Shown piece after piece: positions 1-25,346 of a DNA stretch of 64,000 bases (position 1 is the first letter of the stretch; the number at the start of each line of letters is the position of its first letter). The translations under genes and the position numbers were made by a program. The stretch spans positions 35,828-99,827 of the forward strand of contig JBAZZV010000002.1 of NCBI GenBank assembly GCA_041658645.1. Direction: 5' to 3'. The stretch comes from Candidatus Margulisiibacteriota bacterium (lineage in GTDB: Bacteria; Margulisbacteria; WOR-1; O2-12-FULL-45-9; XYB2-FULL-48-7). The notes beneath the pieces were generated by a model. It saw nothing but the letters and a program-made list of their open reading frames with translations. It was not told where the DNA came from and did not search any database.

Positions 1-3000
1 GAGCTCCGCCAGGATTATATCAGGCTGTATACCCAGCTGTACGAATATGAATCGGCGCGGATGTTTGCCACCGTCCCGGGAGTGGCGTCAAGAAGCCGTG
101 AGATCAGAGCCGATATCATCAAGCGGCTTGACCGTCTGGTCGCCGCCTACCCGGCGCAGAGCTCCGACGTTCAAGACCTCAAAACCGAATTGACCAAGAT
201 CGATCAGCGGGAAACCGCCCGGCTTCCCCACGAAACCGAACGACTGAATATCCTGTATGAATCGGCTCATCGTTTCGGCTCGGACAAGGATAAAAACCTC
301 CAGTTGCCGGACACCGCTCTCCTGGTACGCTATCACTACGAAAAAGCCAACCATCTTTTAACCAGAGTATTAGAAGATAGTCCCCTCCGTCCGCTGATGA
401 TCGCACTCGTCAACGATATAACCACCCGTACTGATACGCCGCTCGGCCAGATTCTGGAGCAATTCGGCCGGCTCGTCCATGACCTGAAAGAAAATGACCT
501 CAACGCTCTCGGCGAATATTTCTTTATGAGGAACCACTACTCTTCGCTGGGTTACGCCGAGACCGAGATCGAGTCGAAGACTGCGGCGCTCAAAGGCCGG
601 GCCCAGGTCGCGATCAAAAAGATCGAAGATATCTGCAAACGACCGAAAGACCGGTCATTGCAAAACAAACTGACGAATTCGCTCCAGAATTTTGTCAGCC
701 ATTTCTATAATCTTCAAAGATCGTATAACATCTATGCCGCCAACAACAACAAATCAACCATCAACTTTACCGCGGCGAATGACCTTATGCAGAAGATCAA
801 TCAAGCTCTGCCGCCTACCAACAAAGACAGCAAAGAGGTTTTCAGTATTCTGGCCGAATTGCCAGAAGATTATGAGCTTGCCAAGGTTGAACTAAGCAAA
901 AAAGCGGCGAAAGAAAACACCAAAGCGATCGAAGCCGACCCAAGTAATCTTTCCGGCGTCAATGCCAGTCAGTTTGATCGGCGCGCCCAGGAAGTGATGT
1001 TAACTCCCAGAATGCTCGGTTTTCTCGCCGACCAGGTTGGGAGCAGCATCGGCCAAAAGTTTACCGCGGCCGACCTGAAAATTAAATACCCCGAACAAGA
1101 CAAAAAGACCCCGTTTGAGGCGAGCGGGGTTTATCTGGTCAGCCATGACCCGGCGACCAACGACCCAATCTTTACCAGAGTCAACGTTGAGCCACCTGCC
1201 CTTGAAGAGCGGAATTTTTCGGGCACCGCGATCAGGCGCGACCTGCCCGACCTGGTTGACCATGACGGCGCCGCGCTTTTCAATATCGCGACCGCCGGCC
1301 GTTCGCATGCCGCTGGTACATTATCGCTGACCAGTTCGCAAGATCGCTGCGCGGTGGACGGCGTAACCGATGAAACGATCACCGGTTTGCTTGATTTTGC
1401 CAGCCAGGGAGATGCCTATGAGCTCCAGGGCGGGCTCGAATTTACCAGTTATGAACAGCCCGTTCTAACCAGCGTCGCTAAATATCAGGGAGATAACGGC
1501 CTGACCGCGCCGGAACAAGCGCTCCTGATCCGGTTGACAGAACCCGAAGCGCGTTTCAAGCCCGAGGAAGCGGCCAGACTTCGTCAATTAGCGGCCAGAA
1601 TAACTTCTATTGCTCCCACTAACCTGACCGTGCCGGAAGACAAGGCGGCCTTTGCCAGCCTGGCGGGAACAATTCAGAGGCGGGTAACCAATTATCTGGA
1701 ACGCAAACCCGGCCTGACCGGACCGGAACAGGCAACCCTGACGCAAATGCGGGAATATATCAAACAGCATAAGTTCGTCATTCAGGGCCGGACATTTGAA
1801 CACGGGCCGACCGACGAAATACTGGCCCTGATACCGGCAGGCGAACGGGCCGACTTTACCGCCTGCTGGCAAAAAACCATGACCATCTTCAAGCGCCTGA
1901 TGTTCCAACTGCAAAAGATGTCGGTCCAGTCGATGCCGGAGAACGACGTCCCGGATGTCGATTCCGCCTGGTACGCGTATCTCTGGCAGTTGGGCAAATC
2001 GTTCGGTTACGGCACGGCCGACGGTTTCCATGAACTGACCTCGCCGCAAAAGATCCAGAATATGCAGCAAACCGGTTTGCCGCCGGCCATGACCATGGGC
2101 GTTAAGATGCAAATGTATCAGGATCGCTATAGCCGGTGGACCGCTAACGCCGCTTTTTACAGCCGGTTGGAAATATTAAGCGATCCCAACGTCAAAGAAA
2201 CACCCGCCTTTACCTCGCCAGAAATGGATCAGCTGCGGGCCTATTTCAAGGTGACCGATGATCAGCAACTGACCAGCGTCTTTGCCGAAATAAAAGCGAC
2301 CGCAAAAATCGCCAATGATTTCGCCGCTTCTCTGGCCAACCTGCAGGAGCAGAAAAACCGGCTTACCGCGCTGCTTGAAGGCCGGCCAATCAACCGCCAG
2401 GATTTGGACGCGATCAAGCCGGGACTGTTCGACACCTTAAAAGCCGCCGGCTATCTCAACGCCGACGGCAAAGTCCAGTCAAAGTTTGTTGACTCGATCA
2501 ATGTCAATCTGGCGCTGACCGACACCGAGAAAAAACAAACGGTCTCTCTCTTGACCCAATACCAGGGGTTAGAAACCCGCTTGCATAATATTCAGGCAAG
2601 ACTGAAAGATCTTAAGCCAGCGGACGATGCCTCCGATGATAATCTCGCCGCGCTGAAGGGAGTTGGTGATGCCGGGGAAAAAGATTACAAAGAAGTCGCT
2701 CGAAAATTAACAGCTCTCACGCAGATCAGAGATAAAATCAGCGAGCTGGTCCGGCTCTCTGAAAGCTATGCCAAAGATCCGATACAGGTTGTCGCCAGGG
2801 TCGACCGGATCAAACAGCAGATCGCCGACCTGGCCGGCAGTGATAACCTGCGCAAACTCAACGCCAATAACACCTTTGAAAACGACCTGCTAAGCGGCTT
2901 AAGGACCGGCTTAAGCGTCGCGGAAACCCAGGCCGAAAAGCTAACCGGGGCCAGGACCAAATACATGTTCTATCTTGAGTTAAAACAAAAAACGCAAATC

Positions 3001-6000
3001 AGCGTCTCGACCGAAGGAACTTTTTTCTCCGGCGACCGTTTTGACATCAATGATTATGAAGCTCTGCAGGGCAGCGGGTTCAGCCGCCTGCTCGACGATC
3101 GTAGTTTTATCGGCGAGATCACCGCCAGTCTGTTCTCACAGCAGGATTCAAAAATCTTCGGCTACCACGGCCGCGACACTTTTAAAACGCCGCGCCAGCT
3201 TTTGAACGCTTTCTTTTTCGGCACGGTTGACCGAACCATGGTCAGCCCCGCCGGCTGGAACGCGTTAGTCAAATTAGGGCTCATCGATGAACAGGGAATT
3301 CTTGTTTCCCGCTTTAACGTCGAGCGGCAATATTTTACTCTAAATGAAGTGTCAGAAGCGGACGCCGGCCAAGCCTACTCGGCAATGGCCGCCGCCTCCC
3401 ATCAGGGCCAGGAGGGATTCCGGTTAGCCACGACTAACACCGAATTCGGAGAAACAAACGAGAGAACCTTGGCCAAACTGGCGATCACCAAAGTTTTTGA
3501 AAGGATCCCCCAGCCCGGCCAGGCCAATTTCCTGATGCCGTTACTGCTCTATTCGTTCGGCAAACATCATAATTTACACGGGGTCGCGAGCTTGCCCCGT
3601 GAATTAACGACCGCTTTGGGCGGCGTTACCGGGCTGGGTGATCATGCCTATGGACCGGAAACAACTGCCGAACAGATTGAGCTATTAAATAGCACTGCCG
3701 GCCAGGTCTATTATAATTTTGTTTCTTCACTGGCCATGGAATCAAGCCAGATGTCGCCCTACGCTCACCTGGCCGACCAGTTACATTTTTACATGATCTA
3801 TAACAGTCCGAACAGCAGTAATTATCTGCGCAGCCTGGTCCAGCCCGGCGGCGATATTAGAACACAGCTCCGCCTGATCAACCGGAGCCAGGTTGCTGAC
3901 TTCGGTCAGGAAGTCCAAACGATGATCGATACCATCAGGCGCAATCCCTTATTACTTAAGGATTTAAACTTGTTAATGGGCGGCCAATCGGGCCAGATCA
4001 AAAGCGCCTTGATGCGCCGGGTCATTAAAGACGCCAATCTCGATCATGCTTTAATGGGCACAGTGGATCCCGCCGGCGTCACTGCCATTTTCGACAACGA
4101 TAACAGCTGGAAACATTTCTTTGAAAATCCCGATAGCCCCAACCACGGCCGGATCAAATTCAAACTCGATTTCCTCCAGCTGATCCAAATCGCCCAGCTT
4201 GATGAAACCAAGAGAGCACAACTTAGAACACTGTTCGGTAAGTCGTTTGTTTTGCCCCCGCGTGATTATAAAGAACAAATCGACCGTTTGTGGCCCGCTG
4301 GCCGGACGGAACCATTTAGTAATTTCACCGATCCGACCAACGCGCCGGCGGAGCTCGTTGCCCTGTCCCAGGTATTTGAAGACTTGACCAAGCTTTCTCC
4401 CACGGTCAATCGCTCCCGGAACACCGATGACCCGAAACGCCGGGCGCTCTCTTCTCTTAGCCTTTCAGAACGTTTGATCGAATGGGGCGCGCTGAAGGAA
4501 ACCGGCGGTAAAACCCCAAAAAATATGTGTGTGCTGGAAAATGTGGAATATAACCCGAATGGCGGCACGATCAACCGGCCGACTGTCAACTTCGCTTCAC
4601 GCTACTATCGGGACACCAAGACTTGGCTCGGCGAAACCTACGGACCGCAATTTGTCCAGGACGTCTATCAAACCTTTACCGACAAAGAAGCGGCTATCAG
4701 GGTCCTGACCCAGTTCCGCAACCATCTGCTGACGCAAGCCGTTAATTATGGTTGGAAAATGCCGCGCAGTATTGCCACCGGATTAAGCGCTATTATTGGC
4801 GGTTTGATTGAGGCGTATAAAACCGACAGCCCGACCGAGAGGGCCCAAATCCTGGCCAAAGTTTTCGAGCAAGCCGGTTCCACCGGCGCTTCATTTTCCG
4901 GCTACGAAGTTTTCAGCGAAATCTTCTGGGGCAGTTTAAAGGACCACGCGGAACAGGGCAATATCGGGGCGCTGGCCGCGGAAGCGATCTTGATCCCCGT
5001 TATGTTCAGCGCTACCGGATTTACCTCAAAAACCATTTTAGCCTGGGGCAAGAACCAAAAGGTCCGGCTCTGGGATAGAGCGATCAAAAATCGAATGACC
5101 CCGCTGGAAAGGGGCTACGCGATGAGGAATTTGTCGCATATCCTTGAAGGGACCGGCGTAAAAATCCTGACCGCGCTGCCCAGATATGGCCTCGTTGAAC
5201 CTGTTCGCCGCGGTATCAGAGCAGCTAAAGCAGGTGGTACCGGTCCCATCGACCCCCGCCGTCCTCTCCAAATCGAGATCGGCCGGTCAATTGAGATCGG
5301 TGTCGGTAATGATTCCGGCGCCCACGTTACTTCGACCGCCTGGAACCGGGCTAATTATTATGGACGAGGTGTCTGGTGGGGCAATGACGCTGTTACCGGC
5401 GGGATCAGCCACGGTTATCACGCTGCCGGCGACCTGGTTACCTCACTGCCGGGATTTCTCGGTCGATCGGCCCTCACCGCTGTCACAAAACTGGACGATA
5501 AAGCGAAGGTGAAAGATCTATCCGCCGCTGGTGAAATGATCGACCGGCTGCGGAACATCCGCTCCAATCCTGACGGCTTCACACCGATCAACATCACCAG
5601 AGAACGGCCGGAATTCGCTAAAGAAAGAAGCCTGCTGGAACAGAAAATTAAAGCGGGCCAGCCTTTGACCGGCCAGGAACAAGCCCGTCTTCAGCAACTC
5701 ACCAGCGCGGTGAAAAAAGGGAAAGTCTACGTGAAGAACTCCGACCTGTGGCGCTGGATCGAAAACAGCAAGGTTGACGGACTGGCCAACCTGCGCGGTA
5801 AATTCCCGGCTGGCAGCCGCCAGGAATGGAACACCGAAATAGGGCAAATGCGCAAATTCGTTGAACAAAACCGCGCGGCAATCGACGTTCCGGTCGACAA
5901 CGGGAACGTGACCAACGGGGTTAAACTGCTGACCGATCTGGCGCAAAATCCTGACGCTTTAACCCGCGAATATTCCTTCCCGGTCGAAGAGGCCGAAGGC

Positions 6001-8514
6001 AAAATAGTTATCAGAAAATTAAGAGGCGATCAGGTGGCCAGACTGGTGGCAACCGCCGGACAGAACAAGCCAACCCCTTTTGTCGAAGAATTCGGCCTGA
6101 CCGAGCCGGCGGCCGCCCAGATCGTCGGGCAAATCCAAGGTGAATTTCAAGCGGTTGGCCAACCGGCAAGAATGGTCAAACTGGCCGAATCAGCCAACCG
6201 GATGACTTTTCAAAATCCGATCGAAGCGGAATTCCGAAAGATGGGTCTCAGCCACGCCAAGATCAATGATGGGGCCTTCTTAGATGTCGCGCCCGAAGAT
6301 ATTGAAGCGTTCAAAGAAGCGGCTAGAAAAGCTAAAGACAACGGCCTGACCAGCATCGAGATCGAAAGCGGAGTCAGGTTCGGCGGAGAAGGCAGGCCTG
6401 CTCTTCTCGAGCTCATTAAAACACTTAATAACAACCCGCTCAAAAAGATCAATGTTGCCCAGAAACGCAATGGCTACTTTCTTAATGAAACAACTCCTCT
6501 CTCACAACCCAGCGTTGTCGACGCTGCGGAAATCGCTGACCAAGTCAAAGCCGCGCGCCGCGACCTGGAATTGGCCAGGGATAAAGCTTTAGCCAGAATT
6601 GATGCCCAGAATATCACGGCTGACCGCAAAGCGCAGATGAAAACCGAAGCCCTGCACACCTGGGAACGGGAAATGTTCGGTCTGGAAAAGGCGATAGTTG
6701 AAAAACGGGCGCTTGAAGCGGAAATTAAAACAGAGCAAGCCGCCGCCCGCCAGCTTTATGGTGAGATCACAACTTTACGAAAACAATTAAAAACTGTTGA
6801 TAAAAATCCCGCCGAAACCGCCCGTCTCAAGTCGCTGATCGGAGCTAAGACTGCCCAGCTCGAAGGGATCAGACAGCCGCTGGGCATTAAGGTCCGCGCT
6901 TTCACGCGTGCTCACGGCCCCATGATCGCCCTGATCCTCGGCCTTGACATCGCCATGAACTGGCATGAGATTAAAACCGGCGGGGCCGGCCAGGCAGCCG
7001 CCACCGGCGCCGCCGCGCTCGGCGGTTATCTTGCTTTCGCGGCCGGTGAAGAAGCTTTTGTTAATCTCTTTAAGGTCGGCAAAGGAGCGGCCGGACCGTT
7101 GACCGGCGCCGCACTCGGGGTGACCGTTGCCACCCTGCGGCACAAAGAAACTTTGATGGGTGGTGATCGGTCCGCTAAAGCGGCCGCGCTGGCCGACATC
7201 GTTAAAGAAGGAGTCGCCGGTTATCTGGCGGTCAAAGCTGGCGCATTGGCCGCCGCTCCGCTGGCCGAAAACCCGCTTTTAGCCGGAGCCGTGGGACTTG
7301 GGGTTGGCGCCCTGGTTTACGGCGGTATCGAATGGGGTGGCGAAGCGCTCGGCTATAAGCAATGGATCGACAGGACGGTCACCAAAGGCCATCTGGTCGA
7401 TTCGTTCAAAGAAAAAGACAAATTCGGCATCTCTCTCAAAGTCAATAATAATAGCGCCAATCTCCCCTATTTCAACGAACAGAACGAAACCGTGACAGTT
7501 GATGGGCAAGCCGTTAAGATCTCGAAAGCCCAGCAATTCCTGGGGGTCATACAGGCGGCGGTTAATTTCAATAAAATGCGCCCGGCCGAGCGCGCAGAAT
7601 TCATCAGGCAAAACGGCGAATTCGGCCGCCTGCTGGGCCGTTACATGAGGACGATCAACCAGATCAACCAGCTTGAAGTCAACGGGTACGCCGACCTGAC
7701 CGACGAAACGCTCGACCGGGCCAACTCGGCCATTGAACAATATCGCGAGGAACACGGCCTGCGGGATTCTGACGACGGCAATATCAAACACCGTTTTGAT
7801 ATTAAAGTTAACCGGCGTTTCACGCCGGTCAACGACCCGATCACCGGCCAAACGGTTGGACAGCAAGTGCTCTATGACATTGAAGTTACCGGCGCCAGGG
7901 TCAGCCGCGGTTTTGGCCAGGCCGGGATCGATCAACTTTATGAAACAAAAACTTATTCCGGCAACGGGGTTGAAGGAAATCTTGACCGGCTTCTGCAGTC
8001 CTCTATCATCCTGCAAACAGCCGATCCCGAAGCTCCTAATCAATACAATATCGGTCTGAATGAGTTAGCCGCGCATAATATTGCCCTGCCCTTAACCCAG
8101 CTCGATCGCTTCCCGGTCGCCCGGCAGGAATTGGCTTCCCGCCTTAGCCACCTCGGTTATCGAGTAACTGACGACCAGGATCAAATGACGGCCGGCAGTT
8201 TAATGGCGGCCTATCTTGAATTTACAAATGATCAGGGCAATCCGACAACTCCAACAACTATCGCGCTCCCCGGCGGCGCCCAGCCGGTTGGTCCGGAGCC
8301 GGTTTTCATTAACCTTTCCGGCTACCAGCTTGACCCGGCTCTGATCAATGCCGCCCGAAGCCAAGTGAAGCCGCAGGCGCTGTCGCTTAAAACCAATCCG
8401 TTTGTGACTGCCGATAGACGGTCGGTCGCCAGTCCCAAACTTGAGCCAACCGTTTTGCGTAATTTGTTGGGTGAAGATCTCCCGATAACTGCGGATTTGA
8501 ACGTAGCTGGATGA
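1..8514 (+). CDS. Giant uncharacterised protein, 5'-partial. The reading frame is open from nt 1, so the protein exceeds 2,837 aa. It has a Gly/Ala-rich hydrophobic block of several predicted TM helices at about nt 6900-7330. No domain was recognised by eye.
   Basis: An uninterrupted ORF in frame 1 runs from the window edge to the stop at 8512-8514. The first ATG at 61 is internal. Codon usage is consistent with neighbouring genes. The hydrophobic segment reads GGAGQAAATGAAALGGYLAFAAG...AGAVGLGVGALVYGGIEWGG. Confidence 0.8.
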   Translation, partial: ELRQDYIRLYTQLYEYESARMFATVPGVASRSREIRADIIKRLDRLVAAYPAQSSDVQDLKTELTKIDQRETARLPHETERLNILYESAHRFGSDKDKNLQLPDTALLVRYHYEKANHLLTRVLEDSPLRPLMIALVNDITTRTDTPLGQILEQFGRLVHDLKENDLNALGEYFFMRNHYSSLGYAETEIESKTAALKGRAQVAIKKIEDICKRPKDRSLQNKLTNSLQNFVSHFYNLQRSYNIYAANNNKSTINFTAANDLMQKINQALPPTNKDSKEVFSILAELPEDYELAKVELSKKAAKENTKAIEADPSNLSGVNASQFDRRAQEVMLTPRMLGFLADQVGSSIGQKFTAADLKIKYPEQDKKTPFEASGVYLVSHDPATNDPIFTRVNVEPPALEERNFSGTAIRRDLPDLVDHDGAALFNIATAGRSHAAGTLSLTSSQDRCAVDGVTDETITGLLDFASQGDAYELQGGLEFTSYEQPVLTSVAKYQGDNGLTAPEQALLIRLTEPEARFKPEEAARLRQLAARITSIAPTNLTVPEDKAAFASLAGTIQRRVTNYLERKPGLTGPEQATLTQMREYIKQHKFVIQGRTFEHGPTDEILALIPAGERADFTACWQKTMTIFKRLMFQLQKMSVQSMPENDVPDVDSAWYAYLWQLGKSFGYGTADGFHELTSPQKIQNMQQTGLPPAMTMGVKMQMYQDRYSRWTANAAFYSRLEILSDPNVKETPAFTSPEMDQLRAYFKVTDDQQLTSVFAEIKATAKIANDFAASLANLQEQKNRLTALLEGRPINRQDLDAIKPGLFDTLKAAGYLNADGKVQSKFVDSINVNLALTDTEKKQTVSLLTQYQGLETRLHNIQARLKDLKPADDASDDNLAALKGVGDAGEKDYKEVARKLTALTQIRDKISELVRLSESYAKDPIQVVARVDRIKQQIADLAGSDNLRKLNANNTFENDLLSGLRTGLSVAETQAEKLTGARTKYMFYLELKQKTQISVSTEGTFFSGDRFDINDYEALQGSGFSRLLDDRSFIGEITASLFSQQDSKIFGYHGRDTFKTPRQLLNAFFFGTVDRTMVSPAGWNALVKLGLIDEQGILVSRFNVERQYFTLNEVSEADAGQAYSAMAAASHQGQEGFRLATTNTEFGETNERTLAKLAITKVFERIPQPGQANFLMPLLLYSFGKHHNLHGVASLPRELTTALGGVTGLGDHAYGPETTAEQIELLNSTAGQVYYNFVSSLAMESSQMSPYAHLADQLHFYMIYNSPNSSNYLRSLVQPGGDIRTQLRLINRSQVADFGQEVQTMIDTIRRNPLLLKDLNLLMGGQSGQIKSALMRRVIKDANLDHALMGTVDPAGVTAIFDNDNSWKHFFENPDSPNHGRIKFKLDFLQLIQIAQLDETKRAQLRTLFGKSFVLPPRDYKEQIDRLWPAGRTEPFSNFTDPTNAPAELVALSQVFEDLTKLSPTVNRSRNTDDPKRRALSSLSLSERLIEWGALKETGGKTPKNMCVLENVEYNPNGGTINRPTVNFASRYYRDTKTWLGETYGPQFVQDVYQTFTDKEAAIRVLTQFRNHLLTQAVNYGWKMPRSIATGLSAIIGGLIEAYKTDSPTERAQILAKVFEQAGSTGASFSGYEVFSEIFWGSLKDHAEQGNIGALAAEAILIPVMFSATGFTSKTILAWGKNQKVRLWDRAIKNRMTPLERGYAMRNLSHILEGTGVKILTALPRYGLVEPVRRGIRAAKAGGTGPIDPRRPLQIEIGRSIEIGVGNDSGAHVTSTAWNRANYYGRGVWWGNDAVTGGISHGYHAAGDLVTSLPGFLGRSALTAVTKLDDKAKVKDLSAAGEMIDRLRNIRSNPDGFTPINITRERPEFAKERSLLEQKIKAGQPLTGQEQARLQQLTSAVKKGKVYVKNSDLWRWIENSKVDGLANLRGKFPAGSRQEWNTEIGQMRKFVEQNRAAIDVPVDNGNVTNGVKLLTDLAQNPDALTREYSFPVEEAEGKIVIRKLRGDQVARLVATAGQNKPTPFVEEFGLTEPAAAQIVGQIQGEFQAVGQPARMVKLAESANRMTFQNPIEAEFRKMGLSHAKINDGAFLDVAPEDIEAFKEAARKAKDNGLTSIEIESGVRFGGEGRPALLELIKTLNNNPLKKINVAQKRNGYFLNETTPLSQPSVVDAAEIADQVKAARRDLELARDKALARIDAQNITADRKAQMKTEALHTWEREMFGLEKAIVEKRALEAEIKTEQAAARQLYGEITTLRKQLKTVDKNPAETARLKSLIGAKTAQLEGIRQPLGIKVRAFTRAHGPMIALILGLDIAMNWHEIKTGGAGQAAATGAAALGGYLAFAAGEEAFVNLFKVGKGAAGPLTGAALGVTVATLRHKETLMGGDRSAKAAALADIVKEGVAGYLAVKAGALAAAPLAENPLLAGAVGLGVGALVYGGIEWGGEALGYKQWIDRTVTKGHLVDSFKEKDKFGISLKVNNNSANLPYFNEQNETVTVDGQAVKISKAQQFLGVIQAAVNFNKMRPAERAEFIRQNGEFGRLLGRYMRTINQINQLEVNGYADLTDETLDRANSAIEQYREEHGLRDSDDGNIKHRFDIKVNRRFTPVNDPITGQTVGQQVLYDIEVTGARVSRGFGQAGIDQLYETKTYSGNGVEGNLDRLLQSSIILQTADPEAPNQYNIGLNELAAHNIALPLTQLDRFPVARQELASRLSHLGYRVTDDQDQMTAGSLMAAYLEFTNDQGNPTTPTTIALPGGAQPVGPEPVFINLSGYQLDPALINAARSQVKPQALSLKTNPFVTADRRSVASPKLEPTVLRNLLGEDLPITADLNVAG

Positions 8515-8661
8515 TAAGGGGATATTAATGGGCGGGTACAGCGGAAAACAGGCCCGTTGTGGCCCGCCCTTTAATGATCGCCTTCGCTTTATTCTCTTCT
8601 ATTTGACTCGATAGGCCCTCATACCTCGCCAGCCCTTTTTAAAAGTATGTTATAATATTTT

Positions 8662-9561: not shown

Positions 9562-9600
9562 GTGGCGGACTCCGCGCTAAAGCCGATAGGGATTATACTT

Positions 9601-10587
9601 TCAACTCGCCTTCCTATAAACAACACCAAAATCCTGGGCGCAACGGATATCCCTGAATTTCTCAAATATTGTGGCAAAAATACCGAGTTTTATGTCCGCG
9701 ATAAATGCCACATATCGATTTTTCATCAGCATTTTTACCATCAAAGCCAGAAATTTAACTACTGGATATTTTTTTTGATAGCCTTCCCCGTAAAATCTCA
9801 AGAAATCATAAAGCGGCACAAACAGATCATAGATCAATTCAACTTTTTCCTCTTTTAGGCCGAGCGCGCGGAAACGATTGAGCGTTTCAGCGGCTCTTTC
9901 CAGCCCAAAATGACCGCTTATCTCGATTACGAAATATTTATGAAAAAGGTCCTTGTCCCTCTTGGCAAAATTGTAGAATAAATTATTCGCATCGGCCTCA
10001 ATGACATGGGCCATAATCCCGCCTGGCTTAAGCACCCGACACATCTCTTTTAATAGCTGGTCTTTTTCAGCGGCCGGAATATGGCCGATCATGTCAGTGC
10101 TGACGACAAAGTCAAAAATATTGTCCTGAAACGGCAAATTAAGAACATCCGCCTGGGCGACCAGCGGGTATATTTTCCTCGAATCCTTGAGGGCGCTCAT
10201 GGCGATGTCAACGCCGATCACCGGCCCGATCTGGCGATAAAAGCTTCTTCCCGCGCCGCAGCCAACATCTAAAACAAAGCCCTTTTTGCCGTTTAACGCC
10301 TTTTTCAGGAACTTTTCGCGGCGCAAGCTCAAGCCAAGTCTTTCCGAAAGATAATACATTATTTTATCGATGAAAGGCGCGCGAGCCGATAGTTCGAGAT
10401 GCATTTTGTAGGTCCATTCTTCGTAGAACTGGCTGGGCGGGTTTGGCGCAAAAATCGGGATGTCTTCGTGGATATTGAAAACGTGACTGTTCTTGCAAAC
10501 TAGTTGGTTCTGCCCGGCCAGTGAAATCTCGGCTTTACAAACCGGACAGATAAACAGATTGGTCAATGAATCAAATTTGTTGGCCAT
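9601..10587 (-). CDS. Class I SAM-dependent methyltransferase with an N-terminal zinc-ribbon (RlmA-like architecture), 328 aa.
   Basis: N-terminal CPVC...18 aa...CKNSH zinc-ribbon. VLDVGCGAGR is SAM-binding motif I. DxxxD/acidic motif II and LKPGG are also present. Confidence 0.75.
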   Translation of the reverse strand: MANKFDSLTNLFICPVCKAEISLAGQNQLVCKNSHVFNIHEDIPIFAPNPPSQFYEEWTYKMHLELSARAPFIDKIMYYLSERLGLSLRREKFLKKALNGKKGFVLDVGCGAGRSFYRQIGPVIGVDIAMSALKDSRKIYPLVAQADVLNLPFQDNIFDFVVSTDMIGHIPAAEKDQLLKEMCRVLKPGGIMAHVIEADANNLFYNFAKRDKDLFHKYFVIEISGHFGLERAAETLNRFRALGLKEEKVELIYDLFVPLYDFLRFYGEGYQKKYPVVKFLALMVKMLMKNRYVAFIADIKLGIFATIFEKFRDIRCAQDFGVVYRKAS

Positions 10588-10653
10588 TGGACGGCATTAT
10601 AACTCTTTTTGCGCTTCTCAGGCAAATGATGATTAATGAGGCAGTAGTTGAAT

Positions 10654-13600
10654 CTAGACCCCGGCTTCCACCAGGTCATCGACTTCTAAGAATCCATTGG
10701 CGGGGCGTGCTTCTTTCTTCTTTTCGTCACGGCCGCGGCCGCTGTCACCGAAGACGCGCGCCGCGATCGGGTTTTCCGGCCTTACGGCCGGCACCTGGCG
10801 GTTGGTTGACGGGGCCTCGGCTTTTTTCTCTTTGGTTTCACGTTTGACGGCGGGAACGTTTGTCTCGGCCGCCTGCACTTCGACTTTGGCCAGGACCACC
10901 GGAGCCGGCTGTTTGATAATTGGAGCCGGGGCTGGCGCTATTATCGGTTGAGCATCTTTCACTACCGTATCAACATTTCTGCCGACCTGGGAATGAGGCG
11001 TTCGGTCAGCGATAGCTGCGTTGGTGGTTTTGAGAACATGCGCCTGGACCGGCGCTTCCTCACGCGCCCTATCGATCAACAGCCGGTACTCATTGATCTC
11101 TTTAAGCTCGGCTTTGGCCGAGCGGTTTTCGAGCTCGCTCACCAGGGTGCCGATCTGCCGCGACAGCTCTTTCCTCTCCGCCTTGATCGCTTCCTGCCTG
11201 GCTCGCAGAACGGCGATCTGTTGATTGATATCTTTGATCTCTTCGACACAGGTAGCCCCGCCCTTCGCTTTCTGAAGGCCATTGATTTTCGCCGTTAACT
11301 CGCTTTCTTCTTTGTTCAATTTTTCTCTTTCATGCAGCTTAACGATAACGGCATCCTTGATCTGAGATGAAGTTAATTTCTTGATGTCATGAACGCCGTT
11401 CAGATCGATCGCCGCGGTCCTGACAAAATTATCGCCCTTAGCCTGTACCGTCCGTTCCAGTTTAGCGATTTGTTGTAATAACGGCTGGGTCGCTCTTTCC
11501 GGCGCCTGCTGCCCCGGCGGCTGAATCGGAGCGGCACTGGGATTATTATTCACAGCCGGTGAAGGCACATATTTATCAACCGGCGGTTTCTGCTCCGTAT
11601 CAGTGAGCTGTGCGGTCCGCGGCGGCTCATTGGCGCTTTTCGCCCGCTTAACAGCGAAATCTTTTATGATCAGCTTTTCACCCGGCTTTTTCTTCTTATC
11701 AAATTCTTTGGCGATCAAGCCTGATATTTTTTCATAAGCTTTTATCTCATTCTTGAGCTGTGAGTTTCTTGTTCCTAAGTCAGCGCTCCTGCTTTCCAAA
11801 TTCACTTGGTTCGTTTTGATCTCTTGTTTAACCTCATCAGGCAGGCCGACAATTTTTAAGCTTTTCGCATTATCCGCCAGTTGCAATTTGATTTGTCCCA
11901 GCTCAACATTGTTTTCGTTGATCTCGGCACTGCGCGGCGTCCAGTCTTCCCGGCGCAGTTTGTCATAAGCCGCCTGAAGCTGTGTAGTATTCATATCCTT
12001 GATTGGTATACCGCCAGCCGATTTGACGACTGATTGCTCCATCTGCTTTTCTGCTAAAGAAAGCGTAGCTGATTCTTGTATCTTCTCGGTCTCATTAATA
12101 TTGGTAGACTTAGCCGCAATTGATTTTTCTATTTCGTTGGCACGGTCAAGATCGCCTTTGCTGTTTTTTGTCGCCGGCTTGTTAGCCGCCGCCTCATTTA
12201 ATAAAGATGCCGCCTGCGGGAGATTGCCGTTCATAGCCGCCGCCACAACCGCACTGGCGGCTGCCTGCGCCTGTTTCAACATTTCCGGATCAATTTGCGT
12301 TTGGTCTAACGGTATTCTATCGATCGTCGGCATGATAGTATCCGCCACTGCGGTCGGCGGCTGTACTGATGGCGCCGGCTGATTGGCGTTGCTCTCGACT
12401 GGCAGTGGCGGAGGTGTGCTTTTTGCCATATCTCTCCCCCAACCAAGCGCATTGACACTGTCATTGATCAGGCCGATAACGAATTTGTTGAAGTCGGCCG
12501 CTATCTTGCGCGCCGCTTCCAACTCGTCCATGCTCAATTCATTTTCGGCCGTAACTTGCTGAAAGCTCGCCTTCTCATTCTCTATTTTGTTGAGCGAGTT
12601 TACGGTACTATTATTCGTGTTTTCATCGTATTTTACCGGCTGGACCTGTTTGGCGTTATCGCCTTTATTGCTGTTGGCCGCGTCGTAGGCCTTTTCAATT
12701 ATGAACGACAGCATATTGTTGGAAACAAGGACTTTGGTCAGGATCGCGGCAATATCTCCGTAACCGATCTTGCCGTCCCAGTTCTCACCGAAGATATTGG
12801 CGACTTTCGCGTCTTTGATCACTTCGATCGGCTTGGCGTTAGAACTGCCGCCCGCCTTTTCCACCAGCTTATCAACCTTTTCTTTGATAAAGTTATAAAC
12901 AGGTTTCATAAGTTTGCCGTCACTATATTGATTCAGCGCCATGAATGTGCTCAAGGCCGAAGTCCCGATCGTGACATACATTTTTTTCGTCAGGTCGTTC
13001 AGCTCGTTCATCCGGTGGGCCAGCTCCTTCACCCGCTGGAAGAGGAGTTTTAAAGTATTGAGAGAGGCGTCGCGCTTATCGTACATCGCCTGGCTAAGCG
13101 GGTCCTGGGCCAGTGAAGTATTGCCAAGCTTGGCAAAGATCCGGTTCTGCGCCTGTTTGACGATGGCCAGAGCCAGATAAATGTTATAGAGATTGCTGAT
13201 CTTGGTCTGCATGGCGTAATAAACTCCGGCATTAGGCGCCACGTAGCCGCCGCCGACCCCCTGAAGCATCCCCCGGTTCATCTGCTGGAGGGCGTCGCGC
13301 TCGCTAGCGGTGATCTGGCTGTCAAACTGGTTAGAGGTGTTCTTGTAAACATTGTCGAGCATCAGCTCAAGATCGCGCTGGCTATCGAGACCGCCAAGCC
13401 CCTGGTGTTGATCATAGATCGCAAAGGCGAGATTGGTACCGATATGTCCGAGTTTTGTCCCCAGCTGGGCTAAGCTGAAAGCACTGTGGAGGGCGGTTCC
13501 GGCTTTGGTCGCCGCGCCGCCGCCCGCGCTGGCCGCTTCCAAGGCGCCGAAAGCCACATCCACCCAGCCGCGCTCGATCGCTTTATCCTGCTCCCGCTTC

Positions 13601-16600
13601 CGGTTATGGACCTGGATCCGGTCGGAAATATAATCTTGTTTGTCGTTAAGAGTGCGGACTTTGACCCGGTGCTGTTCGCTGAACGAGTTGTGCAAGATCT
13701 GCATGTTCGGGTCGTTCAGCCCGACGCCGCTGAAGTTGGCCAGCTGGTTCTGATACTCGGCCAGCATCGCTTCGTAAACCATCAGGAGCGCCATCTCGAC
13801 AAATCTTAGTTTGGTCAAGTTATCCCGGGCGGCCGCTAGCGAAGCGACATCGGTGCCCCATTTGCCGTCACCCGCGCTGACGTGGTTGTTTTCGTTCAGC
13901 CCATCAATGATCTCCTGTCTTTCGCGGTCGATCTTATCAAATACAGTTTTGCCGGTCGTCTTATTAGGATAGAAAGTGTCTTCACCGGGCAGTCTCTTGT
14001 CGTCAACCGGGTGGCCTTGCTCATACGCCAAACTGCCGACCCCGGCGCCCAGGGTCGCCATTCCGCCGGCGAAACCGATAATGACCAACGGCGTGGCCGC
14101 GCCCCAGGTCGCGATAATAGCTATAGCGGCGATCGCCAGACCGATCGTGGTTCCCCAGGCCTTATAAGCCATTGATTCCAATTCCCGATTCCAGGCATTC
14201 AGGCGGTTATGCTCCCTCACTTTATTCTCTATCCCGGACAGTTTGAGCTCAAACCCGAGTTCCTGGGAACGGAAGGTTTCTTCCGCCGCTTCAACGTGGG
14301 AGCTGTCGATCGTCATCAGCGGTTTTTCCAGCCACATGGAGAGGATGTACTTTACCGTCCTGATCTGGGAGAGACCGACCATGGCGATCGCCCGCATCAG
14401 GTTATGGAGACCTTCGAGCCGGGCCCGAATGTCGGCCACCCCTTTTTCATTCAGGTGCTGGAAGCCGTCGTCTTTATTGATGATGATACCGTCATTCAAG
14501 CCGCTGGCGACCAATTCCCAGCCGAGCTCTTCCGCCTTCTGCATGGCCATGCTCGCCTGTATGTTCGGGTCGCCGCCGGAGACCATGTACTGGGCATTGC
14601 CAACGTGATCTTGGCCCATTTGCCGCAAGATCGCGTAAACGTTATCCATATTCACCTGGGTCGGGGCATAAGTCCGGGAAAGCTTGGAATCAAGCATACA
14701 GCCGGTAAAGTAATCGTTGAGCGCGGTAAAGGGATAAGCGAGGAGAAAGCCGCCGCTAATAGTGCCGGCATAAACCGAAGTCAGCATCGCCTCCGCTTTC
14801 TGCGCTTCCACGAACGCGTCAACCATAGTATTGTGCGAGCTGACCATCCCCACCATGGAATTGATCATGATCGAGAAAAGTTCAAGCTCGAATTTTTGGA
14901 GATCGGCCAGCATCTGGTCAAAAAGCTTGAAGTAACCTTCCCCGACCTTGACCCCGGTCATTATATAAAGAATATCGTTTTTCGCCTGTTCGATCGCTTC
15001 TTTGACAATGTAATAAGCCCGCTCAATGTTATTGAGGCCGACCAGGCGCATCCGGGCCGCCAGGATCTTGTCGCGGTCGATGTCCCACTTCGGCGGCGGG
15101 TCGCCCCCCCCGCCTCCGTTAAGGCCGAAGGCGCCGCCGATACTGGCGGCTTCAGGCGAAAGGGCGATCGCGACGATATTGTCGCCGTTAACGCCGTTGG
15201 CGCCCGCGTAGGCGAGCGCTGAATTAGGAGCAAAGATCGAACCCAGGATATAGGCACCCGCCCCGGTTCCACCCTCCCCGTCTGACTCGATGTCGGTCTG
15301 CACCATATTTCCGCTGTTGATGCCGCCCCAGCCGGTTGACGTATCGCCGAACCAAAGCTTCTTCTTGCCATCAGCCACCGGACTGCCCGCGTTCTCTTCT
15401 TCTTGAATATGCTTGATTATTTTGAGGATGGCTTCTTCCAGGATCCGTTCTCTTGCCGCGTCAAAATCCGCCTTCTCCCTTTCGATGTTCGCCTGGCGTT
15501 CTTTTAAATTCGCGTCATATTCCCGCTTGCTGATCTCACCGCCGCTAAAGACATCGCCCAAACCATCGAAGGCAAATTCTTTGAAGACGGTCTTGAAGCC
15601 GAACCATTCGCCGCTCAGCTCATTGAAGCCCGCTTTCATCTGGTCCCAGTCACCGGTAAACATCCCTTCAAAAAAGTCGCCCGCCCCTTCAACGAAGTTC
15701 TCAACCGAATTAGTAAAAGAATCCCACCAACCCGATTCTTCTTCCGCCCTTCTCTTGGCTTCCGCCACTTTGGCCCTATAAACAGCGTTATTAAAGTCTT
15801 CGATCTTTTCCCTCAATTGCATTTCGATCAACTGGACCTTCTGCAAAGCGGTCTGCCGCATTGACGTCACCAATTCGGCCAGCGACAGGTCGGAATCCCG
15901 GCTCGTAAGATCATTATCGTAAAGCATCTGGTACATCGCGCGCCAAACGTTCCGTTTGCCTTCGGCGACCGTCGCCAAAGCGGTCATGATGTTCCAGAGC
16001 TTCATCAGTTCCTCATAGTCCTTTTGCAGGTCCGGCGACTCGCCGGCATAACTGCTGTTATAGGTCGGATCATTGATGTTCCCGTCAACATAGCCGCCGT
16101 GGTCGATCTTGTCTTGTATCTCTTTCTGTTTGGCTTCGATCATCGCGTCAACCGAATAGGCGGCGTCAACCGTCGGATCGCCGGAACCGGTGCCGCCGGG
16201 CGTGGCCGGAATATGATCATCTTCAGTCCCGTCACCCGGAGGCGGTGGTGGTGGCGGCGGCTCGTCCGGCGTCGGCGGCGGCGCATCCGGAGCCGGCGCG
16301 GTTAAAGTTGAGAATATCTGGTTGCATTTGGCGGTGAGGTTGTCGATATAAAAGTTGGTATATAAACTGGTCGTGGTCATATTCGACGGGGCGAACAGCC
16401 GGTCGACTTCCGCCAATATATAATTACCTTTGTCTTTTTTGGCTTCGATCACCGTCGACTGAATTGCCGATGCCTGCTGTTTGAAAGAGTTGTTGATCGA
16501 GGCATTGATCCCGAACGATTCCTGCGGCTTGAAGGAAATATCGTCGACCAGCAAAAACTCGGAAACCGCGTTCGGATTGATATCCTCGCGGATCTCCTCT

Positions 16601-16647
16601 GAATGGATTTTTGGCTGATTGTTTATCTGGGTAATATTGCTTTGCAT
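10654..16647 (-). CDS. Giant uncharacterised membrane-anchored protein 2, about 1,997 aa from ATG 16647. The ORF is open to a TTG at 16749. The N-terminal region is followed by two TM helices at about nt 14030-14170, then a long coiled-coil and proline-rich C-terminal region (PPPPPPPP; PAPAPIIKQPAPVV).
   Basis: Long ORF. The upstream TTG start at 16749 has no RBS (CCTCC precedes it). ATG 16647 (MQSNITQ) is preceded by the sigma-28-like promoter motif at 16654-16686. TM segment: GTTIGLAIAAIAIIATWGAATPLVIIGFAGGMATLGAGVG. Confidence 0.75.
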   Translation of the reverse strand: MQSNITQINNQPKIHSEEIREDINPNAVSEFLLVDDISFKPQESFGINASINNSFKQQASAIQSTVIEAKKDKGNYILAEVDRLFAPSNMTTTSLYTNFYIDNLTAKCNQIFSTLTAPAPDAPPPTPDEPPPPPPPPGDGTEDDHIPATPGGTGSGDPTVDAAYSVDAMIEAKQKEIQDKIDHGGYVDGNINDPTYNSSYAGESPDLQKDYEELMKLWNIMTALATVAEGKRNVWRAMYQMLYDNDLTSRDSDLSLAELVTSMRQTALQKVQLIEMQLREKIEDFNNAVYRAKVAEAKRRAEEESGWWDSFTNSVENFVEGAGDFFEGMFTGDWDQMKAGFNELSGEWFGFKTVFKEFAFDGLGDVFSGGEISKREYDANLKERQANIEREKADFDAARERILEEAILKIIKHIQEEENAGSPVADGKKKLWFGDTSTGWGGINSGNMVQTDIESDGEGGTGAGAYILGSIFAPNSALAYAGANGVNGDNIVAIALSPEAASIGGAFGLNGGGGGDPPPKWDIDRDKILAARMRLVGLNNIERAYYIVKEAIEQAKNDILYIMTGVKVGEGYFKLFDQMLADLQKFELELFSIMINSMVGMVSSHNTMVDAFVEAQKAEAMLTSVYAGTISGGFLLAYPFTALNDYFTGCMLDSKLSRTYAPTQVNMDNVYAILRQMGQDHVGNAQYMVSGGDPNIQASMAMQKAEELGWELVASGLNDGIIINKDDGFQHLNEKGVADIRARLEGLHNLMRAIAMVGLSQIRTVKYILSMWLEKPLMTIDSSHVEAAEETFRSQELGFELKLSGIENKVREHNRLNAWNRELESMAYKAWGTTIGLAIAAIAIIATWGAATPLVIIGFAGGMATLGAGVGSLAYEQGHPVDDKRLPGEDTFYPNKTTGKTVFDKIDRERQEIIDGLNENNHVSAGDGKWGTDVASLAAARDNLTKLRFVEMALLMVYEAMLAEYQNQLANFSGVGLNDPNMQILHNSFSEQHRVKVRTLNDKQDYISDRIQVHNRKREQDKAIERGWVDVAFGALEAASAGGGAATKAGTALHSAFSLAQLGTKLGHIGTNLAFAIYDQHQGLGGLDSQRDLELMLDNVYKNTSNQFDSQITASERDALQQMNRGMLQGVGGGYVAPNAGVYYAMQTKISNLYNIYLALAIVKQAQNRIFAKLGNTSLAQDPLSQAMYDKRDASLNTLKLLFQRVKELAHRMNELNDLTKKMYVTIGTSALSTFMALNQYSDGKLMKPVYNFIKEKVDKLVEKAGGSSNAKPIEVIKDAKVANIFGENWDGKIGYGDIAAILTKVLVSNNMLSFIIEKAYDAANSNKGDNAKQVQPVKYDENTNNSTVNSLNKIENEKASFQQVTAENELSMDELEAARKIAADFNKFVIGLINDSVNALGWGRDMAKSTPPPLPVESNANQPAPSVQPPTAVADTIMPTIDRIPLDQTQIDPEMLKQAQAAASAVVAAAMNGNLPQAASLLNEAAANKPATKNSKGDLDRANEIEKSIAAKSTNINETEKIQESATLSLAEKQMEQSVVKSAGGIPIKDMNTTQLQAAYDKLRREDWTPRSAEINENNVELGQIKLQLADNAKSLKIVGLPDEVKQEIKTNQVNLESRSADLGTRNSQLKNEIKAYEKISGLIAKEFDKKKKPGEKLIIKDFAVKRAKSANEPPRTAQLTDTEQKPPVDKYVPSPAVNNNPSAAPIQPPGQQAPERATQPLLQQIAKLERTVQAKGDNFVRTAAIDLNGVHDIKKLTSSQIKDAVIVKLHEREKLNKEESELTAKINGLQKAKGGATCVEEIKDINQQIAVLRARQEAIKAERKELSRQIGTLVSELENRSAKAELKEINEYRLLIDRAREEAPVQAHVLKTTNAAIADRTPHSQVGRNVDTVVKDAQPIIAPAPAPIIKQPAPVVLAKVEVQAAETNVPAVKRETKEKKAEAPSTNRQVPAVRPENPIAARVFGDSGRGRDEKKKEARPANGFLEVDDLVEAGV

Positions 16648-16653
16648 CTCTAT

Positions 16654-16686
16654 ATATCTATCGTGGTTTGGGGTCAAAAACTTGCA
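16654..16686 (-). promoter_or_regulatory. Sigma-28-like promoter motif: TGCAAGTTTTT-N12-CGATAGATAT, immediately upstream of the ATG (16647) of giant gene 2.
   Basis: Same bipartite motif. It argues for the 16647 start rather than TTG 16749. Confidence 0.5.
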
Positions 16687-16815
16687 TGGAGGGAGGCCTA
16701 TTTTTAGTGGGTATGAAGCCAAAAATATGATATTTTCGAATGCTATCAACCAGGGAGGATGGACGTCAGCTAATTAAGGCCTGTATTAATAAACCACGGA
16801 GGCTAGATTTTTACG

Positions 16816-19286: not shown

Positions 19287-19311
19287 TTAAAACATCTCCT
19301 TATCTTTAGCA

Positions 19312-19554
19312 TTACCCTTTGGGATTGGAAGGGGTGTATCTGTCTGGTTGGTCAGCCGGTTTTTCATCCGACTGTGTCGGTAGCATCCTGCCTTTCTCTT
19401 TCCCGCTAGCCTTGTTCCCAACATAACCGGCCAGCCGCTGGGCGGCTGGATCATCAAAAAACGCCGTAGTAAGTTGTTTACCAGGACCGGCCGCGGCCGG
19501 TGTCCACGAGCCGCCGATATAAGTATCTGTATTAATTCCTGCCGCGTATCCCAT
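19312..19554 (-). CDS. Small hypothetical protein (80 aa).
   Basis: ORF whose start overlaps the stop of the upstream gene by 1 nt (translational coupling). No recognisable domain. Confidence 0.45.
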   Translation of the reverse strand: MGYAAGINTDTYIGGSWTPAAAGPGKQLTTAFFDDPAAQRLAGYVGNKASGKEKGRMLPTQSDEKPADQPDRYTPSNPKG

Positions 19555-25343: not shown

Positions 25344-25346
25344 TGA

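Follow-up and report, generated by a model that had tools for sequence, protein, structure and literature searches.

A sigma-28-type promoter shared by two giant orphan genes and their neighbours in a Margulisbacteria gene island

Margulisbacteria are a sister lineage of Cyanobacteria that includes some symbionts, and we know of no cultured representative. Here, we analysed a 64-kb stretch (hereafter the window) of contig JBAZZV010000002.1 from the Candidatus Margulisiibacteriota metagenome-assembled genome (MAG) GCA_041658645.1, in which two giant genes, termed giant 1 and giant 2, converge on two small enzyme genes. Both giants lie in an island of ~36 kb between hisF and an NTP-transferase gene, whose genes are almost all orphans, and both share their promoter type with about a dozen other genes of no recognised kind. 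A preliminary description of the window had compared the giants with host-attachment proteins and had noted a modification-type enzyme gene after each. The comparison with related loci, the promoter and the base composition of the small genes led us to a different, tentative interpretation, according to which the giants are membrane-tethered scaffolds of a sigma-28-type regulon.

Two convergent giant genes under purifying selection

The giant genes and those of their features that are needed first are located in the window as follows.

1..8514, plus strand: giant 1, C-terminal 2,837 of 3,260 residues; frame open from nucleotide 1, stop codon at 8512-8514
4765..5043, plus strand: first conserved hydrophobic region of giant 1, residues ~2012-2104 (YGWKMPRSIATGLSAIIGGL ... 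GNIGALAAEAILIPVMFSATG), with a Kyte-Doolittle peak at 2076-2104
10654..16647, minus strand: giant 2, 1,997 aa (P0002 minus its first 34 residues), delimited by homologue alignment and promoter position
14026..14169, minus strand: two-helix hydrophobic hairpin of giant 2 (WGTTIGLAIAAIAIIATWGAATPLVIIGFAGGMATLGAGVGSLAY), Kyte-Doolittle maximum 2.18, conserved in the homologue P0003
16237..16260, minus strand: poly-proline run PPPPPPPP of giant 2, on the N-terminal side of the hairpin, read in translation and conserved in P0003

The parent contig was recovered through an exact look-up of the radical S-adenosylmethionine (rSAM) protein that is encoded between the giants. On this contig, giant 1 starts 1,269 nt upstream of the window, which places 423 N-terminal residues outside it, and the full gene (L001:71-9853, protein P0001, locus tag WC632_02525) comes from a Candidatus Margulisiibacteriota MAG, where NCBI annotates its product as hypothetical. 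The preliminary description had giant 1 as open-ended and larger than 8.5 kb; the gene is indeed very large (3,260 aa), and it is complete on the parent contig. A stop codon or frameshift shortly before nucleotide 1 would have meant that the gene is not giant; the frame instead extends to 3,260 aa. Because the gene structure is identical across 4-5 independently assembled contigs (JGI, ENA, Logan), an assembly chimera is excluded.

The full-length homologues of giant 1, P0009 and P0011, are 27-31% identical to it. Most of the invariant columns in the alignment of giants of this type (type A, refer to the family section below) fall within the first conserved hydrophobic region (R2012, I2014, G2017, G2024, F2055, E2059, G2076 and K2100). 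The ~140-aa Gly/Ala-rich block that had been noticed ~400 aa from the C-terminus was recovered at residues ~2727-2866, 394 aa before the end of the protein.

The longest open reading frame (ORF) of giant 2 encodes 2,031 aa from a TTG at 16749. The ATG at 16647 matches the start of the homologue and is used in two of four gene calls, and a conserved promoter lies between both candidates. Giant 2 therefore almost certainly starts at this ATG (1,997 aa) and not at the TTG. As described previously, this minus-strand ORF of ~2,000 aa has ~850 aa before two putative transmembrane helices, which occupy residues 861-908 of the 2,031-aa ORF. They form a bilobed hairpin of ~44 aa with a short, uncharged loop, ~830 aa from the N-terminus. 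The Pro-rich C-terminal region that had been assigned to giant 2 was confirmed in part: PPPPPPPP lies N-terminal, before the hairpin, and only PAPAPIIKQPAPVV is C-terminal.

Giant 2 has one known homologue, P0003, as judged by a word-index search only. It is encoded in a second Margulisbacteria MAG (GCA_028717325.1, contig JAQUOB010000030.1; locus L008) and is 73-76% identical to giant 2; this locus also encodes the C-terminal 187 residues of a giant 1 homologue (80% identical), and there, too, the two giant genes converge. Against this relative, we obtained dN/dS ratios of 0.29 for giant 2 (1,963 codons, compared with P0003), 0.21 for the C-terminus of giant 1 (179 codons) and 0.25 for the island gene p292 (292 codons). 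Both giants are real genes under purifying selection, at ratios (0.21-0.29) that are rather high for bacterial genes.

Neither giant has a recognisable domain, in agreement with the preliminary description. No match to Pfam, NCBIfam, PHROGs or PADLOC was found for either, a Walker A motif is absent from both, and no PDB sequence matched significantly: sequence and profile searches with each giant, with the alignment of the C-terminal module (A3) and with the full-length type-A alignment (A4) returned chance-level matches only. The signal peptide that was missing from the visible part is also missing from the full-length N-termini of both giants. Self-BLAST revealed no internal repeats in either giant and no paralogy between them, so that extended repeats are absent, and a windowed Smith-Waterman comparison yielded one short local similarity in giant 1. 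The predicted secondary structure of the giants is all-helical, and their conserved hydrophobic helices fit membrane anchoring.

The sole internal similarity of giant 1 joins window-frame residues 478-597 and 1798-1917 (giant 1 residues ~901-1020 and ~2221-2340) with a score of 78 against a null maximum of 48; the repeated element is the short motif L-T-x-x-E-Q-A-x-L (GLTAPEQALL, GLTGPEQATL, PLTGQEQARL).

Wider searches by other means returned little. A word-index search with full-length giant 1 produced the self-match only, and one with the module alignment produced no match, probably because low-complexity words swamped it. A scan of a genome-contig collection found only the known relative in L008, and two scans of metagenome contigs gave no match, the parent contig included, which probably means that the collection does not contain these samples.

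A sigma-28-type promoter precedes both giants

The string TGCAAGTTTT...CGATA...ATATATAG is common to the sequences upstream of giant 1 (in locus L005) and of giant 2. From 22 tabulated sites, among about 30 sites in all, we derived the consensus ATGCAAGTTTTT-N12-CGATAAATATAT. The pattern AAGTTW-N14-CGATA occurs four times in the 64-kb window compared with 0.06 expected occurrences, and none of 100 shuffled sequences reached four. Each of the four is a minus-strand site immediately before a gene, namely giant 2, the orphan genes p292 and p71, and the glycosyltransferase gene GT2-TPR. A position weight matrix (PWM) built from 13 non-window sites in other loci gave six matches in the window at 22.9-41.1 bits, the maximum of 50 shuffles being 17.1 bits. 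All six match the coding strand and fall within 16.6-29.7 kb, and none is in the housekeeping half of the window (30-64 kb). The two additional matches are a second GT2-TPR site and a CGATT variant before the gene p315.

16651..16687, minus strand: giant 2 promoter (ATGCAAGTTTTTGACCCCAAACCACGATAGATATATA), PWM 41.1
21401..21437, minus strand: p292 promoter, found by pattern and PWM, conserved in L008
25035..25071, minus strand: GT2-TPR promoter, found by pattern and PWM, ATG 11 nt after CGATA
25308..25344, minus strand: second, tandem GT2-TPR site, PWM 29.0
28417..28453, minus strand: p71 promoter, found by pattern and PWM
29698..29734, minus strand: variant site (CGATT) upstream of p315 at the right-hand island edge, PWM 22.9

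Outside the window, the motif occurs once before giant 1 and twice before its upstream partner gene, p1155. In related loci, it precedes the giant 1 homologue or the upstream partner in L008, L010, L011, L014, L015, L016, L019, L020 and L021, often with two tandem sites in front of the partner gene and one in front of the giant. In L008, it is also found before the homologues of giant 2 and p292, and the site of the giant 2 homologue is nearly identical to that in the window (1 mismatch in 37 nt). The preliminary description had suggested control by an alternative sigma factor, which is strongly supported by the sigma-28-type promoter before both giants and, in related loci, before their homologues or the upstream partners of these.

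The sites resemble Escherichia coli FliA promoters in their -35 element AAGTTT (TAAAGTTT-like) and their -10 element CGATAA/T (GCCGATAA-like), as is seen by comparison with tar (TAAAGTTTCCCCCCTCCTTGCCGATAAC) and ycgR (TTAAGTTTTGTTAACTGTGACCGATAAA), two FliA promoters that were mapped experimentally in a genome-wide study (PMC4183435). Like FliA sites, they are located directly upstream of genes, in gene orientation, and form a multi-operon regulon. Unlike in E. coli, the spacer is 1 nt longer at about 30 sites (AAGTTT-N14-CGATA versus N13), and the preferred flanks are ATGC...TTTT and ...AATATAT. Sigma-28 elsewhere drives late flagellar and chemotaxis genes; in contrast to the FliA regulon, no gene driven here is recognisably flagellar or chemotactic. 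Margulisbacteria are among the phyla with flagellins (PMC7018530), and FlgV homologues were reported in them (PMC11607428). The promoter fits the FliA class, and the giants fit nothing known.

Thus defined, ~36 kb of orphan genes, including the two giants, make up one regulon with a sharply defined, conserved promoter. This promoter can be used to find the remaining regulon in any Margulisbacteria genome and to time its switching-on in metatranscriptomes.

The start codons of giant 2 and GT2-TPR are located 11 nt after CGATA (16647-16687 and 25031-25071, minus strand), which suggests that both mRNAs are leaderless or nearly so. The genes p292 and p71 have leaders of 19-21 nt with AGGAG/GGGAG Shine-Dalgarno-like sequences. 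One further copy of the motif lies inside dnaG (L011:28413-28437), ~900 nt upstream of an rpoD-like sigma-70 gene, and could reflect either coincidence or an internal promoter.

A rare protein family defined by the C-terminal module of giant 1

An exhaustive phmmer search with the last 1,200 residues of giant 1 against 1.84 billion representative proteins returned 14 proteins at E<=1e-3 and 11 at E<=1e-30. The members have in common a C-terminal module, over which giant 1 residues 2591-3190 align lengthwise with eight other members at 23-37% identity.

6502..8301, plus strand: conserved C-terminal module, giant 1 residues ~2591-3190, common to the family (phmmer query residues 531-1128, alignment A3, all-versus-all comparison)
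6514..6891, plus strand: coiled-coil part of the module, residues ~2595-2720, long helices in an AlphaFold2 model (9-sequence alignment), pLDDT 65-82
6910..7329, plus strand: Gly/Ala-rich hydrophobic block, residues 2727-2866, from the family-averaged hydrophobicity profile
7366..8238, plus strand: alpha/beta domain, residues ~2879-3169 (~300 aa), with the motifs PYFN, S-x-AQ, HPLTGE, RFPV and LGY

The block starts at a conserved HGP motif. Its three amphipathic Gly/Ala-rich helices lie between a clearly hydrophobic helix at 2727-2745 and another at 2846-2866, and these two strongly hydrophobic helices are conserved family-wide. It also contains glycine-zipper-like sequences such as GLGVGALVYGG. 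No significant PDB match was found for the alpha/beta domain. A Sec-type N-terminus was found in no member of the family, with P0014 as a possible exception. The two members whose source is named, P0001 and P0012, are both from Margulisiibacteriota. By their N-terminal regions, the proteins were grouped as follows.

Type A giants: giant 1, P0009 (3,506 aa), P0011 (3,138 aa, without the module) and the fragments P0012 and P0016
Type B giants: P0005, P0013 and P0014
Members with an N-terminal Ser/Thr kinase (Pkinase, ~1e-28): P0007 and P0008
Member with a SecA_DEAD ATPase (1.5e-24): P0015 (4,005 aa), a distant relative
Member of unclassified N-terminal architecture: P0010

The N-terminal regions are interchangeable, in that a kinase, SecA_DEAD and two unrelated giant types are carried on one shared module. 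One case is P0004, whose module has 89% identity to its giant 1 counterpart. Its upstream 950 residues have no BLAST similarity to giant 1 (E<=1e-5) and match the type A proteins P0009 and P0012 weakly (23-25% identity). As far as these alignments go, P0004 points to recent shuffling of the module, or recombination at its boundary.

The family gene lies beside genes for ornithine transcarbamylase (OTCase) and arginine biosynthesis in at least four of the related loci (L010, L015, L016 and L019; also L011), and in L010 and L016 it lies between lon and the OTCase/arginine cluster. This recurrent neighbourhood fits vertical inheritance. An orphan of ~1,000 aa is encoded upstream of the family gene in most loci (L011, L014, L015, L016, L020 and L021), and it is detectably related to p1155 in L011 and L014 and weakly so in L020 and L021.

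A constant module with swappable partners, of which one 89%-identical copy sits on an unrelated upstream region, would also suit a pore-forming or polymorphic toxin-like protein, in which the module, by virtue of its amphipathic Gly/Ala-rich helices about a hydrophobic core, inserts into a membrane or forms a pore and the variable N-terminal regions set specificity or activity. The glycine-zipper-like sequences of the block and the rarity and fast evolution of the family agree with such a role. However, the variable end of polymorphic toxins is the C-terminus and not, as here, the N-terminus; no conserved immunity-like small gene adjoins the family gene in the related loci, no colicin or toxin family was recovered by sequence or fold, and the OTCase/arginine and lon neighbours point to vertical inheritance rather than to a mobile toxin cassette. 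We consider the toxin explanation very doubtful.

The module is a new and very rare family, in which a kinase, a SecA-like ATPase or thousands of helical residues are joined to one and the same membrane module. The family is a natural domain-swapping experiment that constrains the topology and the role of the module.

In a further related locus (L019:1-1396; GCA_964568455.1, contig CAZMPJ010000009.1), a protein of 5,398 aa without a Pfam match is encoded a few genes from P0010. The promoter motif is borne there by the upstream 959-aa gene, and further giants may join the regulon in other genomes.

The enzyme genes between the giants are variable

Because the preliminary description had paired each giant with a modification enzyme, we compared these enzymes, and the tetratricopeptide repeat (TPR) gene upstream of giant 2, across the related loci.

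8530..8569, plus strand: GC-rich hairpin GGGCGGG...CCCGCCC followed by TTT, terminator-like, just after the giant 1 stop codon, read from the sequence
8662..9561, plus strand: rSAM/SPASM protein, 299 aa (Pfam Radical_SAM 7e-22, SPASM 1e-7), GC content 0.39
9601..10587, minus strand: class-I S-adenosylmethionine-dependent methyltransferase, 328 aa, with a weak N-terminal zinc ribbon (Pfam)
16816..18627, minus strand: TPR protein, 603 aa, at least 16 TPR repeats, lipobox-like N-terminus (LGSGC), between p106 and giant 2

The identities of both enzymes agree with what had been described, as the Pfam domains of an rSAM-SPASM protein and of a zinc-ribbon methyltransferase are present, the zinc ribbon being weak. 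The gene order, in which each giant is trailed by a modification enzyme, also holds; the functional pairing does not. In L008, the slot between the convergent giants is filled by one Methyltransf_24 gene that is unrelated to either window enzyme, there is no rSAM gene, and the TPR gene is absent. Among 10 distinct loci encoding relatives of giant 1, not one has an rSAM gene, and the sole other adjacent Methyltransf_11 gene (in L014) has no BLAST similarity to the window methyltransferase, so the expected co-occurrence with giant orthologues was not observed.

The GC content at third codon positions (GC3) of the rSAM (0.44), methyltransferase (0.53) and TPR (0.30) genes is foreign compared with 0.61-0.65 for the giants and 0.62-0.79 for housekeeping genes. 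The regulon promoter is absent before all three in the pattern and PWM scans. Terminator-like hairpins part the rSAM and TPR genes from neighbouring operons; the hairpin at 8530-8569 was not called by the terminator scan, whose permitted loop is too short for it. An extended -10 element (TGtTATAAT, 8648-8656) lies just upstream of the rSAM gene, and a sigma-70-like site (10 of 12 matches, 10596-10625) is found within the 66 nt that separate giant 2 from the methyltransferase gene. Generic scans for sigma-70 promoters and terminators were not above chance. From sequence comparison and composition, the rSAM and methyltransferase genes look like units separate from the giants, and the TPR gene looks recently acquired.

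The rSAM protein resembles rSAM/SPASM peptide maturases in its Radical_SAM core and short Cys-rich SPASM/twitch-like tail. It differs from such maturases of ribosomally synthesised and post-translationally modified peptides (RiPPs) or metalloenzymes in falling far below every equivalog cut-off (all 25 listed NCBIfam families; best 102 bits versus the required 380), in lacking a conserved substrate gene partner and in its foreign composition. PADLOC matches of the rSAM (pVip), methyltransferase and TPR proteins covered generic domain cores only and were rejected as evidence of a defence system.

The 42-nt inverted repeat at ~18690-18731, between p106 and the TPR gene, is perfect except for a 4-nt central loop (GGTTTGGAAACCTGTCCGCCTGAGGCGGACGGTTTCCAAACC); it may be the terminator of the p292-p106 operon or an insertion scar.

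These data bear on the model in which the giants are surface proteins for host attachment, like those of Omnitrophota, with giant 1 modified by the rSAM enzyme and giant 2 by the methyltransferase. The Omnitrophota giants exceed 30,000 aa, have numerous transmembrane regions, carry SecA-DEAD domains in most cases, and have extracellular attachment or carbohydrate-active domains (West-Roberts et al., bioRxiv 10.1101/2023.11.21.568195). The present giants resemble them in being very large, mostly unannotatable proteins with membrane segments from an uncultured lineage; the window gene order fits the model, the distant relative P0015 carries a divergent SecA_DEAD domain, and Margulisbacteria are named in the same preprint as one of the phyla in which very large genes are frequent (bioRxiv 10.1101/2023.11.21.568195). 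Unlike the Omnitrophota proteins, however, giants 1 and 2 are only 2,000-3,260 aa long, about one tenth of that size, have one or two hydrophobic regions each, and lack SecA_DEAD, a signal peptide, adhesin domains and a repeat architecture, and relatives of giant 1 carry cytoplasm-type domains. Extracellular attachment or carbohydrate-active (carbohydrate-binding included) domains were found in neither giant by Pfam, NCBIfam and PDB sequence and profile searches. The modification half of the model is contradicted by the three small genes themselves, which are absent or replaced in the closest relative (the rSAM gene in every related locus), foreign in composition, without the regulon promoter, and equipped with their own signals or separating hairpins. 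We therefore regard the model as highly improbable, and any link to Omnitrophota through the SecA_DEAD domain of P0015 would be remote. An adhesin with RTX, Ig-like or cadherin-like repeats was likewise rejected on account of the missing export signal, the lack of tandem domains and the all-helical prediction.

As a caution, the arrangement of a giant plus a modification enzyme, read from the gene order of one genome, vanishes when a single relative is examined.

Candidate roles as membrane-tethered scaffolds or exported proteins

The giants are best read not as adhesins but as inner-membrane-tethered scaffolds of a sigma-28 regulon. We put forward tentatively, with slightly less than even confidence, that they form a pair of membrane-tethered helical scaffolds in a sigma-28-class programme. 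Both proteins would be almost wholly alpha-helical, have no Sec signal and be tethered in the cytoplasmic membrane. In giant 2, the central two-helix hairpin would act as the tether and both long arms would be cytoplasmic. Giant 1 would be anchored via its C-terminal module (coiled coil, Gly/Ala-rich block and alpha/beta domain), with its ~2,700-residue N-terminal part in the cytoplasm. Because the promoter is common to both, the giants are probably co-expressed, and they would serve as membrane-anchored scaffolds or tethers that appear with the late sigma-28 programme of the lineage. The rSAM, methyltransferase and TPR genes would be unrelated accessory genes that were recently inserted into variable slots of the island.

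Because the kinase and ATPase domains of the relatives need ATP and sit at the N-terminal position of the giant, we infer that the bulk of giant 1 is cytoplasmic. In bacterial receptor kinases, the kinase domain is cytoplasmic and N-terminal to the membrane segment, and PknB-type proteins are laid out N-in, membrane-spanning and with a C-terminal sensor. In architecture only, P0007 and P0008 resemble such Hanks-type receptor Ser/Thr kinases, in that the kinase is followed by a linker, a hydrophobic stretch and, at the C-terminus, a domain that is not a kinase, and this layout was used to orient the shared module. Unlike in PknB, the membrane region of the family consists of a multi-helix Gly/Ala-rich block of ~140 aa instead of one helix, the domain at the C-terminus is neither PASTA nor another known sensor, and giant 1 has no kinase. 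The alpha/beta domain would be periplasmic if the number of membrane helices is odd and cytoplasmic if it is even.

Several results weigh against the scaffold interpretation. No flagellar, chemotaxis, fliA or other sigma factor gene was found in the readable ~100 kb of the contig, and therefore we infer the identity of the sigma factor from the promoter alone. Flagellar Pfam families were found neither in 10 mostly small island proteins at a permissive threshold nor in the other island proteins. The Gly/Ala-rich block is only moderately hydrophobic and was modelled by AlphaFold2 at low confidence (pLDDT 30-64), and the AlphaFold2 model of giant 2 residues 540-1439, built on a 2-sequence alignment, has a pLDDT of 32.6 and is unusable beyond its all-helical prediction. 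The methyltransferase gene starts 66 nt downstream of giant 2 with no detected terminator in between, and may thus be co-transcribed by read-through. Finally, the raised dN/dS, the N-terminal swapping seen in P0004, the poly-proline tract and the polar N-termini fit exported interaction proteins at least equally well.

The giants might accordingly be effectors or translocators that leave the cell through a flagellar-type or type III gate and whose hydrophobic helices insert into the membrane of a partner or host. The variable N-terminal regions (kinase, SecA-like ATPase and helical arrays) would then be delivered payloads, comparable to injectisome translocators and chlamydial Inc proteins. 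The sigma-28 class includes non-flagellar proteins that are secreted through the flagellum in Campylobacter and Yersinia, and the sigma-28-class promoters found here are in line with such export. Giant 1 (MSNSCVINNQSF), giant 2 (MQSNITQINNQ; MQSNITQINNQPK), p536 (MVQTVNNQQINV) and p71 (MGNSTIGNLNLNSQ) have no Sec signal and have polar N-termini rich in N, Q, S, T and I. Giant 2 shares with type III translocators and Inc proteins a bilobed hairpin of ~44 aa and long helical and coiled-coil flanks, and PPPPPPPP adds to the likeness. The dN/dS ratios of 0.2-0.3 and the shuffling of N-terminal regions between close relatives also favour export, as does GT2-TPR within the regulon, an architecture that we take to be that of the Listeria flagellin O-GlcNAc transferase GmaR. 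Some Margulisbacteria are symbiotic, and a Margulisbacteria symbiont has reportedly been described in a study of Trichoplax symbionts.

Nevertheless, an export apparatus, a chaperone or a flagellar gene was not found in the readable ~100 kb, and neither sequence nor profile searches (Pfam, NCBIfam and PDB) revealed similarity to translocator or Inc families. The hairpin is located ~830 aa into the 1,997-aa giant 2, sizes of 2,000-3,260 aa are far above those of known type III substrates, the resemblance of the N-termini is anecdotal, and the kinase and ATPase fusions are equally explained by ordinary N-in membrane proteins. We therefore judge export unlikely. Its fullest form is a Margulisbacteria-specific sigma-28 system for cell-cell interaction, in which the giants are exported via a flagellar-type gate and inserted in a partner membrane, N-terminal payloads are delivered and a GmaR-like GT2-TPR glycosylates the exported proteins; this seems quite improbable.

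Because the module family and the orphan regulon are in no library searched, and the giants do not share the defining features of the Omnitrophota proteins, we place the giants and their regulon outside the known kinds.

Other genes of the island and its surroundings

On its left side, the island is bordered by the housekeeping genes for PGM, ROK, hisH and hisF, after which come the orphans p708 and p1155 and, next, giant 1. To the right of giant 2, the minus strand carries the inserted TPR gene and then p106, p80, p329, p292, p536, p238, GT2-TPR, p692, p117, p98, p71, p93 and p315, and housekeeping genes resume at 29743.

18966..21387, minus strand: operon of p292 (20509-21387), p329 (19554-20543), p80 (19312-19554) and p106 (18966-19286), orphans, conserved upstream of giant 2 in the relative
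21437..25031, minus strand: GT2-TPR glycosyltransferase (23940-25031; Pfam), p238 (23231-23947) and p536 (21437-23047)
25347..28405, minus strand: orphans p71 (28190-28405), p98 (27860-28156), p117 (27448-27801) and p692 (25347-27425)
28453..29694, minus strand: p315 (28747-29694) and p93 (28453-28734)

Apart from the inserted TPR gene, GT2-TPR is the only island gene to the right of giant 2 with a Pfam domain, and none of the other island orphans gave a match to Pfam, NCBIfam, PHROGs or PADLOC. In L014, the giant 1 homologue P0011 faces homologues of p536 and GT2-TPR (the latter at 35% identity) in convergent orientation. We also considered whether the island came from a prophage or mobile element and rejected this, as tRNA genes and PHROGs matches are absent and housekeeping genes are present on both sides.

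Within the p292 operon, p329 (19554-20543) is only 37% identical to its positional counterpart in the relative, compared with 66-77% for its neighbours, its synonymous sites are saturated and its GC3 value is 0.38. The gene thus resembles an allele that is hypervariable or was replaced, within an otherwise conserved operon. The p315 protein has a signal peptide and the look of an outer-membrane beta-barrel. A p315 homologue (26% identity) adjoins the P0014 gene in another locus (L021:15685-16593), and p315 may be a conserved component of the regulon.

Beyond the island, positions 34349-36769 of the window encode a protein of 806 aa with Ig-like domains (Glucodextran_B, Big_13 and FlgD_ig) and a weak CHU_C/type IX secretion C-terminal domain, which adjoins a polysaccharide biosynthesis cluster (36766-45390).

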